Origin: Polaromonas sp.
GTDB lineage: Bacteria; Pseudomonadota; Gammaproteobacteria; Burkholderiales; Burkholderiaceae_C
Assembly (NCBI RefSeq): GCF_012927485.1
Contig: NZ_JABBPC010000036.1
Span: 47,996-111,995 of the forward strand
Direction of reading: 5' to 3'
DNA length: 64,000 nucleotides
In this document: one piece after another, positions 60,041 through 64,000 of the stretch
How positions within the stretch are numbered: the stretch's first letter is position 1
Layout of the letters: each line of letters begins with the position of its first letter
Notes under the pieces: generated by a model
Told to the model about the DNA's origin: nothing
The model's input: the letters and a program-made list of their open reading frames with translations, nothing else
The model's database searches: none
Position numbers and translations under genes: made by a program

Positions 60041-61891
60041 ATGTGTGGCATCGTTGCAGCGGTTTCTACGAGAAATATTGTTCCCATTCTGGTGCAGGGT
60101 TTGCAGCGGCTGGAGTACCGAGGGTATGACTCTTGCGGCGTGGCGGTGTATGACGGTGGCCTGAAGCGGGCACGCAGCACCGCTCGCGTTTCGGAACTTC
60201 AGCGTGAGGTTGAGGCCGAGAAACTGGAAAGCGGAACAGGCATTGCCCATACCCGCTGGGCTACTCACGGCGCACCCGCCATCCACAATGCCCATCCCCA
60301 TTTCAGCCACGGTCCCGGGCCCGATAGTGCGGCCCGCCCCGGCAGAATCGCCTTGGTGCACAACGGAATCATTGAAAACCACGACGAGTTGCGCGCTGCC
60401 TTGCAGGCCAAGGGCTATGTGTTTGAAAGTCAGACCGACACCGAAGTCATCGTGCACCTCGTCGATAGCCTCTATAACGGCGATTTGTTCGAAGCACTCA
60501 AGGCAACGATTACCCAACTGCATGGCGCCTATGCCATTGCCGCCTTCTGCAAGGACGAGCCACATCGCGTGGTCGGTGCCCGTGCCGGCTCGCCGCTGAT
60601 TTTGGGTGTCGGCACAGAGCACTCCGAAAACTTTTTGGCCAGCGACGCCATGGCGCTGGCGGGCGTCACCGATCAGATCGTGTACCTCGAAGAAGGTGAC
60701 CTGGTCGACATCCAGCTGGGCAAGTATTGGGTCTTCGACCGACATCACAAGCGAGTGGAGCGCGAAGTAAAAACCGTTCACGCCCACAGCGGCGCGGCAG
60801 AGCTCGGCCCTTACCGCCACTACATGCAAAAGGAAATTTTCGAGCAGCCGCGCGCCATTGCCGACACGCTCGAAGGTATGGTCGGCATCGTGCCCGAGTT
60901 GTTCGGCGACGGCGCTTATCGTGTGTTCAAGGACATCGATTCCGTGCTTATCCTGGCCTGCGGCACCAGCTACTACAGCGGGTGCACGGCCAAGTACTGG
61001 CTGGAATCCATCGCGGGCATACCTACCCAGGTGGAAGTGGCCAGCGAATACCGCTACCGCACGTCAGTACCCAACCCCAAAACGCTGGTGGTCACCATCA
61101 CGCAAAGCGGTGAAACCGCCGATACGCTGGCAGCGCTTCGCCATGCACAAGCGCTGGGCATGACACAAACGCTCACCATCTGCAACGTCGCCACTTCGGC
61201 CATGGTGCGCGAGTGCAAGCTTGCTTACATCACACGCGCCGGTGTCGAAATCGGTGTTGCATCGACCAAAGCTTTTACGGCTCAACTGGCCGGTCTTTTC
61301 CTGCTGACGCTGACGCTGGCGCAAAGCAAAGGGCGGCTGAGCGAGCAGCAGGAAGCCGAGCACCTGAAGGCCATGCGCCACTTGCCCGCCGCTCTGCAAG
61401 CCGTGTTGGCGCTGGAACCCCAGGTCATCAGTTGGTCCGAAGACTTTGCGAAAAAGGAAAACGCGCTGTTTCTCGGGCGCGGTTTGCATTACCCGATCGC
61501 GCTCGAAGGTGCGCTGAAGCTGAAAGAAATCAGCTACATACACGCCGAGGCCTACCCCGCTGGCGAACTCAAACACGGTCCGCTGGCGCTGGTCACCAGT
61601 GCCATGCCCGTGGTCACGGTAGCCCCCAACGATAGTCTGCTGGAAAAGCTCAAGAGCAATATGCAGGAAGTCCGCGCGCGCGGCGGCGTGCTCTACGTGC
61701 TGGCCGACGCCGACAGCCGCATCGACAGCAGCGAAGGCGTTCACGTCATCCGGATGCCAGAGCACTACGGTGCGCTGAGCCCATTGCTGCATGTAGTACC
61801 GCTGCAACTACTGGCTTATCACACAGCGTGCGCGCGCGGCACCGATGTGGACAAGCCGCGCAATTTGGCGAAGAGCGTTACGGTGGAGTAA
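60041..61891 (+). CDS. glmS: Glutamine--fructose-6-phosphate aminotransferase
   Basis: [48 protein letters not shown]. Confidence 0.98.
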
Positions 61892-61914
61892 TCCGGAAAC
61901 GGTTTGGCCAGTTT
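61856..61914 (+). other. attTn7 (TnsD-recognised glmS 3' end plus insertion point)
   Basis: [11 protein letters not shown]-coding sequence is the established TnsD target; insertion occurs ~25 bp downstream of the stop. Confidence 0.7.
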
Positions 61915-62005
61915 TGGTTTTATTATTAAAGTCTGTAAACTAATATTAAAGTCTGTCAAAGTTCCGAGCAATGAACGTCGCAATCGTATAAATAAAGACC
62001 GTATT
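61915..62005 (+). mobile_element. Putative Tn7-like transposon end (TnsB-site repeats)
   Basis: TG at 61915, 24 bp after stop; TATTAAAGTCTGT at 61924 and 61944 (20-bp period), degenerate TAAAGACCGT at 61993; AT-rich; resembles Tn7 TAAAGTCTTAAACT. Confidence 0.65.
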
Positions 62006-62318
62006 CCCGGAATGACTGACCGCTATTCCGGCCTTTACCAACCATGTTGGTGCTAGTGACCTCTGAATCCACCAACAGCCGCTATGTAGCGGGAGCGGTT
62101 ATGCACCGAAACCTGGTTAATGGCCGGTTTGGGCTAGGTGTTGACGTAAGGCGTTTCTGGCGGGATGTCTGCTTCCGAGACAAAGCAGTCTTAGACCGTT
62201 CTTGATTCGCGTCCGGAAAGCAGTCATCCAGAATAGCCATGGCGAAGGCGATGGACAGTATTAATAGCTACCAAGTCTAGCCAGACGCAACCCTTAGAAG
62301 GTCAGAGAGCTGCCCCGC

Positions 62319-62732
62319 CTACAGCTTCCCGGACTGAAGGCGCAGCTGTTTCTGTGGATTAGTGTCCATGTCGGCGTTCTCCTTGAACACCAGCCAGGCA
62401 ATGACGGCGGTCAGAACCGCCTCCAGGTTCAGCAGCAACGAAGCACTTGAGCCACTGGTGGTGGTCAAGCCGAACATCAGCAAAACAGGCCCCACCACGC
62501 CGCCGAAGAAAATCACCCCCATCAGCCAAGGCCATCCCGCGCGCTGCAAGCCGGACGCCTGCCCGCCGCGATGCCGCACCAATCGGATCAGGGTGAGACC
62601 AATGCCACTGCCAAGGTAGAGCAACCCGGCCAGCAAGATGGGCGGCATATCGCCCACCAGCAACTTGGCAAACGGGGTGCTGGCACCAAACAAAGCGGCG
62701 GCGAACAGCGCAAAAAGAACGTTCCGGTTCAT
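62319..62732 (-). pseudogene. Truncated EamA/DMT transporter (first EamA repeat only)
   Basis: AALFGASTPFAK...LLLNLEAVLTAVIAWLVFKENAD (121 aa) then 16 unrelated polar residues; complete members have two repeats. Confidence 0.7.
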
Positions 62733-62762
62733 GCGTTTAGTGTCAGGGATTGGGTTGATCGG

Positions 62763-63815
62763 TCATTGAGGTGTCAAGGCCCTGCAGGTTGCTTCGACCA
62801 GCGGCTGGATCGCCGATTCGGGAAACGGGGAAACGCTGCTGACGTTAATCTCGCACAATACGTATTGCTCGGCTGTATCTGCCAACCCTTGCCCGAGCAA
62901 GAAGTCGGCATCCCAGAGCAACGGCAAGGCGTCACGACGAATTTCCAGGCGTTCGCACAGCATTTCTATCCATTCGCCTTCCAAGTGTTGCCGCAGGTCC
63001 TGGAAGCGCGGATCGCCGGGACCGCTGTACAGCCTGGGGCCAGGCAGCGGTACTTCACTTCCGGCCACGCCCGGATTCAGCGCGATGACCGCCTGATGTC
63101 CGAAACCTGCGACGTGGTCACCCACGAGGTAGGCCCGCGTCATGCCCTCCACCATACGCGGTTGCCAGGCCTGATCGATCAGGTGACCGCCACCGTCAAA
63201 GTACGGAGCAAGCCGCTGTCCAACGCCAGCAAAATCCACCAGTTCCTCCAGGCAACCGCGCTGCGCGTGCCGCATGGCGTAGCGGTCCACCGCGCGTTGC
63301 TCTATGCGCCAGATGCCGATGCCGCTGTGTCCGCGCGCCTGCTTCAGCACCCGTACTCCCATCGCCAGCCGCGCTGGCAACTCTGTGTTGAGCTGCGCCA
63401 GACTGTCGATCCGGTACACATCACTGCCGAACGGCAAGTCGCGCACTGCCAACAGCACATCCTTGGTGCCCAGCTTAAGAATAATGTCTGGATGCGTGCT
63501 GACAAAGACTCCACTGGAGGAAGCTTCGCGTAGCGTCGCGTCAAGTTTGTGGCGGTCACGTCCACCCTCAATGGGGTTGTGCCAGACCAGCACCCCGCGC
63601 ACTCCCATCAGTTGCTGCAAGACTTCATCGCAAAAATCATCGCTGTAAATCGCAGGCTCGATCACAATGCCAACCTTCTCGAATGCTTCAAATAACGCGG
63701 CGAAACGACTCTGCGTTGGATCAGACCGCTCCCGAGCAGGGCGATCCCCTGGATAGAGAATGGCAAGCCGAGGACGAATGTCTTTTTTCATACTAAGCAC
63801 CTCAATAGTTGACAT
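62763..63815 (-). CDS. Cj0069-like ATP-grasp-fold protein
   Basis: VLVWHNPIEGG, STHPDIILKLGTKDVL, RVLKQARG.SG.GIW, WDADF..G, LCEINVSSV.PF. Confidence 0.75.
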   Translation of the reverse strand: MSTIEVLSMKKDIRPRLAILYPGDRPARERSDPTQSRFAALFEAFEKVGIVIEPAIYSDDFCDEVLQQLMGVRGVLVWHNPIEGGRDRHKLDATLREASSSGVFVSTHPDIILKLGTKDVLLAVRDLPFGSDVYRIDSLAQLNTELPARLAMGVRVLKQARGHSGIGIWRIEQRAVDRYAMRHAQRGCLEELVDFAGVGQRLAPYFDGGGHLIDQAWQPRMVEGMTRAYLVGDHVAGFGHQAVIALNPGVAGSEVPLPGPRLYSGPGDPRFQDLRQHLEGEWIEMLCERLEIRRDALPLLWDADFLLGQGLADTAEQYVLCEINVSSVSPFPESAIQPLVEATCRALTPQ

Positions 63816-63822
63816 CGGTTCC

Positions 63823-64000
63823 CTATGCGATAGGAACTACAGGCTGCCCATGATCCTGCCAGGCCGAGATACCGCCATGCAGATGAACCGCCTCAACCCC
63901 CATGGCTAAAAGCGTGGCCGTCAGTCCCTGGCTGATTTCATGGCCGTGTGCACAGTACACCACCACAGGCGTTTGATTAGGTATGCCGTCTTTCCAATCC
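63823..64000 (-). CDS. Rhodanese-domain protein, C-terminal part (runs off window; not in ORF track)
   Basis: Manual translation: DWKDGIPNQTPVVVYCAHGHEISQGLTATLLAMGVEAVHLHGGISAWQDHGQPVVPIA*; stop 7 bp before the ATP-grasp start. Confidence 0.8.
   Translation of the reverse strand, partial: DWKDGIPNQTPVVVYCAHGHEISQGLTATLLAMGVEAVHLHGGISAWQDHGQPVVPIA

Follow-up and report, generated by a model that had tools for sequence, protein, structure and literature searches.

A probable stranded end of a Tn7-like transposon downstream of glmS in Polaromonas sp.

The window analysed here (the whole stretch of 64,000 nt taken from the forward strand of contig NZ_JABBPC010000036.1 of Polaromonas sp.) closes with glmS, a short spacer, a Tn7-like transposon end and part of a chromate-resistance cluster, arranged as follows.

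60041-61891, plus strand: glmS, an ORF of 616 aa with its TAA stop codon at 61889-61891
61892-61914, plus strand: host spacer of 23 nt separating the transposon terminus from the glmS stop, differing from the spacers of other copies
61910/61911-61914: candidate target duplication (A)GTTT, the last 4-5 nt of the spacer
61915-62002, plus strand: Tn7-like end of the closely spaced ('right-end-like') type, with terminal TGG
61921-61939: site 1, predicted TnsB-type site
61941-61959: site 2, predicted TnsB-type site
61993-62002: weak site 3, a degenerate copy with core TAAAGACCGT
62003-62368: residual non-coding segment, presumed transposon interior, unique in the genome
62368/62369: deletion junction (scar), 455 nt inside the transposon terminus
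62319-62732, minus strand: truncated EamA transporter gene (Pfam EamA, 7.7e-18; ORF of 137 aa)
62763-63815, minus strand: gene of the DUF6815 (Cj0069) family (PF20668, 8.5e-30)
63823-64000 and on past the window end, minus strand: rhodanese gene (Pfam Rhodanese on L016)
beyond the window, minus strand: chrA and chrB (Pfam Chromate_transp and ChrB on L016)

From position 61915 the terminus reads TGGTTTTATTAT, and its TGG begins at the 24th base past the glmS stop, leaving between them the 23 nt that an earlier note on this DNA had counted. The same note described a pair of 13-bp repeats, spaced by 20 bp, together with a weaker third copy, and both repeat and motif searches recovered them: TATTAAAGTCTGT (13 bp) is identical at 61924-61936 and 61944-61956, 20 nt apart, the 10-mer TAAAGTCTGT lies at 61927-61936 and 61947-61956, and the 19-nt units at 61921-61939 and 61941-61959 share 89% identity in the repeat search. 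The 11-mer TTAAAGTCTGT, allowing at most one mismatch, has 4 matches in the window against 0.27 expected, a number that 0 of 100 shuffles reached, and the two exact matches among the four are the pair formed by sites 1 and 2. The sequence thus carries the terminal 5'-TG and the several directly repeated sites that characterise a Tn7-like end. Rfam, promoter and terminator scans of 61800-62400 returned nothing notable.

The 3' end of glmS, which we take to be the segment recognised by TnsD-type proteins, shares 80-86% DNA identity with that of relatives in the genus, and this homology ends at the stop codon. The earlier note had proposed a comparison with an empty site, and downstream of glmS each of 30-40 genus relatives indeed has different DNA. 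As homology stops at the glmS stop and the flanks differ from relative to relative, the end sequence at 61915 is not native to the locus. In this genus, attTn7 has the look of a hotspot for insertions.

The same region of the genus relatives shows several further peculiarities. In two of them the last ~35 nt of glmS, together with ~80 nt containing hairpins, are tandemly repeated with a period of 114-115 nt (3 copies in L013 and 2 in L009), giving 2-3 copies of the attTn7 recognition segment, and L014 and L010 have one copy each of this unit; TRF did not detect the tandem units because the copies have diverged. Two relatives, G017 (L007) and G021 (L012/L018), have other Tn7-like-looking ends 22-25 nt past glmS, with TGT followed by AAAGTC(G)TAAAC-like repeats, and the ORFs inside the glmS-side end of G021 have the sizes and the HTH start typical of an IS21 istA/istB pair, for which, by ORF size, they are candidates.

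The 24 nt inward from TGG are found identically in five other public contigs, four of which carry them 23-24 nt past glmS in unrelated flanking DNA. Four lie at glmS: a contig of a Rhodoferax MAG (L047), a metagenome contig that shares both its glmS flank and its end sequence with L047 (L146), and two further metagenome contigs (L145 and L147), of which L145 stems from a genus relative that shares 81% identity with our genome in the glmS region. In the fifth (L148), the terminus abuts the end of a different Tn7-like element. Alignment to L047 gives identity over the 24 nt inward from TGG and high identity over ~55 nt, while no relatedness is seen across the 23 nt towards glmS; since identity starts at TGG and the spacer is unrelated, the element boundary is sharp. 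The 20-bp TnsB-site unit (window 61924-61943) is present in two copies in our genome, L146 and L147, and in a single copy in L145 and one contig from a glacier run (X7).

The earlier note had treated the TGG terminus as an anomaly, a view that does not hold, as TGG is conserved in the five related copies and is not a lesion. Mutagenesis of a related element identified as essential the terminal TG and the distance separating it from the first site (PMC10201428). Consequently, TGG is not a defect, being kept in five copies where only the terminal TG is essential. Other subfamilies of the same end family begin with TGA or TGT. A search for the TGG terminus in 400 genomes of the bacterial family gave chance matches only, with 3 mismatches.

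To place the end in a wider context, species-representative genomes were scanned for two copies of TAAAGTCTGT 8-14 nt apart. Dozens of proteobacterial matches were obtained with exactly 10 nt between the copies, their hosts including Pseudomonas, Alcaligenaceae, Rhodocyclaceae, Methylophilaceae and Rhodoferax, and many of these pairs lie directly past a glmS C-terminus. Across 21 distinct glmS-adjacent ends (our own and those of 20 contigs), the first TnsB-type site stands 34-38 nt past the stop codon, so that the insertion distance downstream of glmS is fixed, as is characteristic of Tn7-like elements, with 23 nt to the terminus here.

TniQ/TnsD was found in the three relatives searched for it, one of which, studied in detail, also has TnsA, TnsB and TnsC-like genes. 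In Pseudomonas fluorescens PfR37, an end of the same type 24 nt past glmS is followed by a TniQ gene and an AAA_22 ATPase (TnsC-like), and its proteins of 665 and 345 aa match Tn7 TnsB (PDB 7pik, E 1.1e-7) and TnsA (1f1z, E 6e-6), respectively. Inside the end of L148, which belongs to the TGG subfamily, are TnsD (PF15978, 4.5e-51), a second TniQ protein and one cargo gene with a RelA/SpoT domain. In Azospira sp. I13, a type I restriction-modification system comes first after the end, and TnsD (PF15978, 3.6e-27), TniQ and genes of TnsA/TnsB size come next. Both ends were recovered in two relatives, with 36 kb between them in P. mercuritolerans and 42 kb in Azospira. In these two, and likewise at three tandem junctions, two sites spaced by 20 nt make up the glmS-side end, and the far end has three sites at a spacing of 50-58 nt, an arrangement that mirrors Tn7, with its contiguous sites in the right end and dispersed ones in the left end. 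Given the TnsA, TnsB, TnsC, TniQ and TnsD genes of the relatives and this end architecture, the TAAAGTCTGT family is classified, from its sequences, as Tn7-like, with the closely spaced end towards glmS.

These comparisons bear out the reading of a Tn7-like end at attTn7 put forward in the earlier note, given the shared terminus, the fixed distance from glmS and the relatives with tns genes, and on its sequence we assign the 61915 end as a genuine Tn7-like transposon end. The note's further expectation that the right end, with tnsA, normally faces glmS is only half confirmed: the closely spaced end does face glmS, but its neighbour is never tnsA in the relatives examined, being cargo or tniQ/tnsD in every one. 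In L122, the genes beside the closely spaced end resemble tnsABC in size alone, and Pfam identified them as cargo (RhuM, helicase, T5orf172 and PIN).

Target-site duplications in Tn7 are normally 5 bp long. In three two-ended relatives of our end, the flanking duplication is perfect for 4 nt only (AGAG, TAGC and CCCC), and a fifth base matches in two of the three only if the terminal base is counted as target. At three tandem junctions, 4 nt lie between ...TCA and TGA... (duplications and junctions were read at L160/L161 in P. mercuritolerans, L162/L163 in Azospira, L142/L165 in P. fluorescens, and at L164, L077 and L122).

Some 10 ends of the family lie just past the stop codon of another conserved gene, the product of which ends in ...ERE(P/S/T)xW (L022, L028, L030, L040, L061, L067, L089, L095, L111 and L130), which points to a putative second attachment site of the TAAAGTCTGT family at this gene. 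A text search of the literature for the site motif returned unrelated primer sequences and nothing relevant, and no description of the end family was found by this route. As a by-product of our analysis, a widespread Tn7-like end family with TAAAGTCTGT sites thus emerges in Beta- and Gammaproteobacteria, and as its termini, gene order and flanking duplication differ somewhat from those of Tn7, it could merit separate study.

Our genome lacks what these relatives possess. Its assembly (3.51 Mb in 37 contigs, 99.99% complete) places the window on a 316-kb contig. No match to Pfam TniQ or to the TnsA N-terminal domain was found in the genome, while as a positive control TniQ matched the expected positions in three genomes with related elements; the P. 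fluorescens TnsB, used as query, found no match either, and tblastn of 13 proteins (nine Tns proteins and four L122 cargo proteins) gave noise only (E >= 0.025). A second end was sought by matching the motif exactly or with as many as 3 mismatches and by looking for clusters of 2-3 degenerate sites, the far end being modelled on relatives, and no inverted TAAAGTCTGT-type site or cluster was found on any contig of the 3.5-Mb assembly; single motif matches are due to chance and fall inside coding sequences (e.g. an HU-like gene, C2:47090). These negative results, on tns genes and on a second end, apply to the assembled DNA, and the searches turned up no two-ended intact copy of the TGG subfamily from which the far end could have been modelled. 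Around the chromate cluster a search for inverted repeats found a local hairpin only, and where synteny resumes (C21:209877) no far end is recognisable in G000, G021 or G023. As tns genes and a second end are absent here and both are present in relatives, the 61915 locus is a remnant and not a functional member of the family.

The genes beyond the end suggest how it may have been left behind. An intact chr-EamA module (L166) matches the cluster here with 84% DNA homology, which breaks off abruptly at C21:110364 (window position 62369). Of the EamA gene, codons 1-121 (62370-62732) are genuine and the last 16 are read-through into foreign sequence; tblastn against a 346-aa homolog aligns residues 1-121 only, at 86% identity, and the remaining 225 aa at the C terminus have no counterpart in the genome other than a 48% paralog on another contig. 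Since the protein alignment and the DNA homology both end at 62368/62369 and the rest of EamA is absent, this point marks a deletion scar. Contigs of four runs from four studies (an ice metatranscriptome, two glacier and one sediment) cross it with 0-4 differences, and as such independent environmental contigs span the junction it is not an assembly artefact. The adjoining segment 62003-62368 has no homolog in any fetched locus and no Rfam match, and is 97-100% identical in contigs of the ice and glacier runs.

An exact-protein look-up of the DUF6815 gene found no match, and the intact cluster was reached through a homolog: the DUF6815 protein is 87% identical to P0003, which is encoded in an intact chrB-chrA-rhodanese-DUF6815-EamA cluster of another genome, with an EamA of 346 aa, in an ordinary chromosomal context with no transposon genes. 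The chromate-cluster genes beside our end are accordingly annotated not as intact cargo but as a cluster cut at the deletion junction. Two side observations concern this cluster: it lacks (L016:3142-3158) the 306-aa Sod_Fe_C/rhodanese gene that lies between chrA and the small rhodanese gene in L166:8632-9552, and in a plasmid collection chrA and chrB were matched at ~75% identity only, unaccompanied by the end.

We consider it highly probable, from these sequence comparisons, that the locus holds the stranded glmS-proximal end of a Tn7-like transposon (one with TnsA/TnsB/TnsC and TnsD/TniQ) whose remainder was lost by deletion. Under this scenario, a Tn7-like element would have homed to a point 23 nt downstream of the glmS stop via TnsD-type targeting, inserting with its closely spaced TnsB-site end oriented towards glmS. 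A later deletion would then have run from 455 nt inside this end to within the EamA gene of the neighbouring chromate-resistance cluster, so that two thirds of EamA were lost along with the tns genes, the far end and possible cargo. What would be left over is one end with two or three predicted TnsB sites, immobile and encoding nothing, in a genome with no transposition proteins. Such a history agrees with the immobilised or internally deleted element that the earlier note had listed among its options, in that tns genes and second end are absent and a truncation junction lies inside. The end, its family, its fixed insertion position, the truncation junction and the lack of tns genes and of a second end are shown by the comparisons; we infer that one deletion lies behind all the losses and that the 360 nt from the sites to the junction are of transposon origin.

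A single deletion is the most economical scenario only, and a multi-step history is possible in view of the IS30, the truncated IS3, 39 kb of accessory DNA and ~100 kb of variable DNA that lie downstream. In such a history the chromate cluster would have been cargo, and IS30/IS3 activity or other rearrangements would have cost the element its tns genes and far end in events apart from the truncation of EamA. An IS30 transposase and a 5'-truncated IS3 indeed occur 12 kb downstream, the 39 kb past glmS (searched as two 20-kb queries) are accessory and largely absent from 30 genus relatives, and ~100 kb separate glmS from the next conserved block (C21:209.9-217 kb), as against ~12 kb in two relatives. 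However, more events would be needed than the one deletion, and the chromate module stands elsewhere in an ordinary chromosomal setting devoid of transposon genes. We consequently regard this alternative as rather unlikely, with perhaps a minority share of our confidence.

The DNA in question has features of its own. The IS30-family transposase gene is directly followed by an IS3 orfB fragment without orfA (L016:11645-13549, i.e. C21:120644-122548), and fragments of the two are also found on other contigs and at the contig ends of relatives. Further along, a 108-nt direct repeat of 94% identity (C21:128859-128966 and C21:144374-144481) encloses 15.5 kb; these repeats may be attachment sites of an integrated element, and no tRNA gene was found at them.

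A non-autonomous element was a second option of the earlier note; here it would be a two-ended Tn7-like element with the chromate cluster as cargo, mobilised in trans by an autonomous relative. It is usual in the TAAAGTCTGT family for cargo to lie immediately inside the glmS-side end, but the supposed cargo starts with a gene cut at codon 121, no inverted copy of the site or of the site cluster exists anywhere in the assembly to serve as second end, and the genome offers no tns genes for mobilisation in trans. Rather than the two matching ends around cargo that define a mini-element, there is one end and a truncated neighbour gene, and we hold this reading to be very improbable. Still harder to credit is an intact element with its far end and its tns (or CAST) genes outside the window or in unassembled DNA, and the note's suggestion that such genes lie past the window end is refuted: the window does stop 2 kb past the transposon end, and the ends of relatives are 36-42 kb apart, but the contig continues for 204 kb beyond glmS, the 99.99% complete genome is without TniQ, TnsA, TnsB, TnsC and TnsD although the TniQ control was positive, and the truncated EamA junction sits 455 nt inside the end. 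Finally, the notion that the repeats belong natively to the region past glmS, as sites for protein binding or regulation, and form no transposon end, which has their intergenic position alone in its favour, may be taken as refuted by the comparisons, since the sequence is absent from every genus relative with a compared glmS downstream flank and the same terminus occurs beside transposition genes and at a non-glmS site.

The terminus is 100% identical to the copies of its subfamily (including L148, beside tnsD/tniQ), as against ~80% identity of host DNA between species, a disparity that fits either selection or recent loss. Retention of the lone end as a target-immunity signal, blocking insertion of cognate Tn7-like elements at a busy attTn7, may be imagined but strikes us as very doubtful. 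DNA nearly identical to window 61400-63000 is present in ice, glacier and sediment metagenomes of several studies (runs X1-X20), which suggests cold freshwater or ice as the habitat of this lineage. For annotation, the attTn7 of this genome is best described as occupied by a dead remnant, and the EamA neighbour as a pseudogene, and it would be mistaken to regard the chromate cluster as intact transposon cargo; beyond annotation, the locus is of little importance.

In its likeness to Tn7, the end combines a fixed short distance past the glmS stop, closely spaced TnsB sites towards glmS and a terminal TG, and its relatives add a far end with three dispersed sites and encoded TnsA, TnsB, TnsC and TnsD/TniQ. 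It differs from Tn7 in being a single end with no tns genes, and the relatives differ in having A, G or T as third base of the terminus and cargo or tniQ/tnsD as glmS-side neighbour, while in three two-ended ones the flanking duplication is perfect over 4 nt only. CASTs are Tn7-like elements with the same end architecture, some of which keep TnsD-directed homing to glmS (PMC13251919); unlike these, our genome is without tniQ (by Pfam, with a positive control), and no cas genes were noticed in passing near the end or in the relatives examined. A parallel is found in Acinetobacter baumannii, where Tn7-like insertions past glmS occur in 54 of 203 closed genomes and only 21 insertions are predicted to be functional, as judged by transposition genes and both ends (PMC11014353). 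Decayed Tn7-like insertions at glmS are thus already documented, and the 61915 locus is another such remnant, a decayed element at the same glmS site as the inactive A. baumannii insertions (PMC11014353). Unlike that case, it comes from a betaproteobacterial genus of ice and glaciers, belongs to another TnsB-site family and has its junction placed to the base, and so offers a base-level example of the decay of a Tn7-like island.
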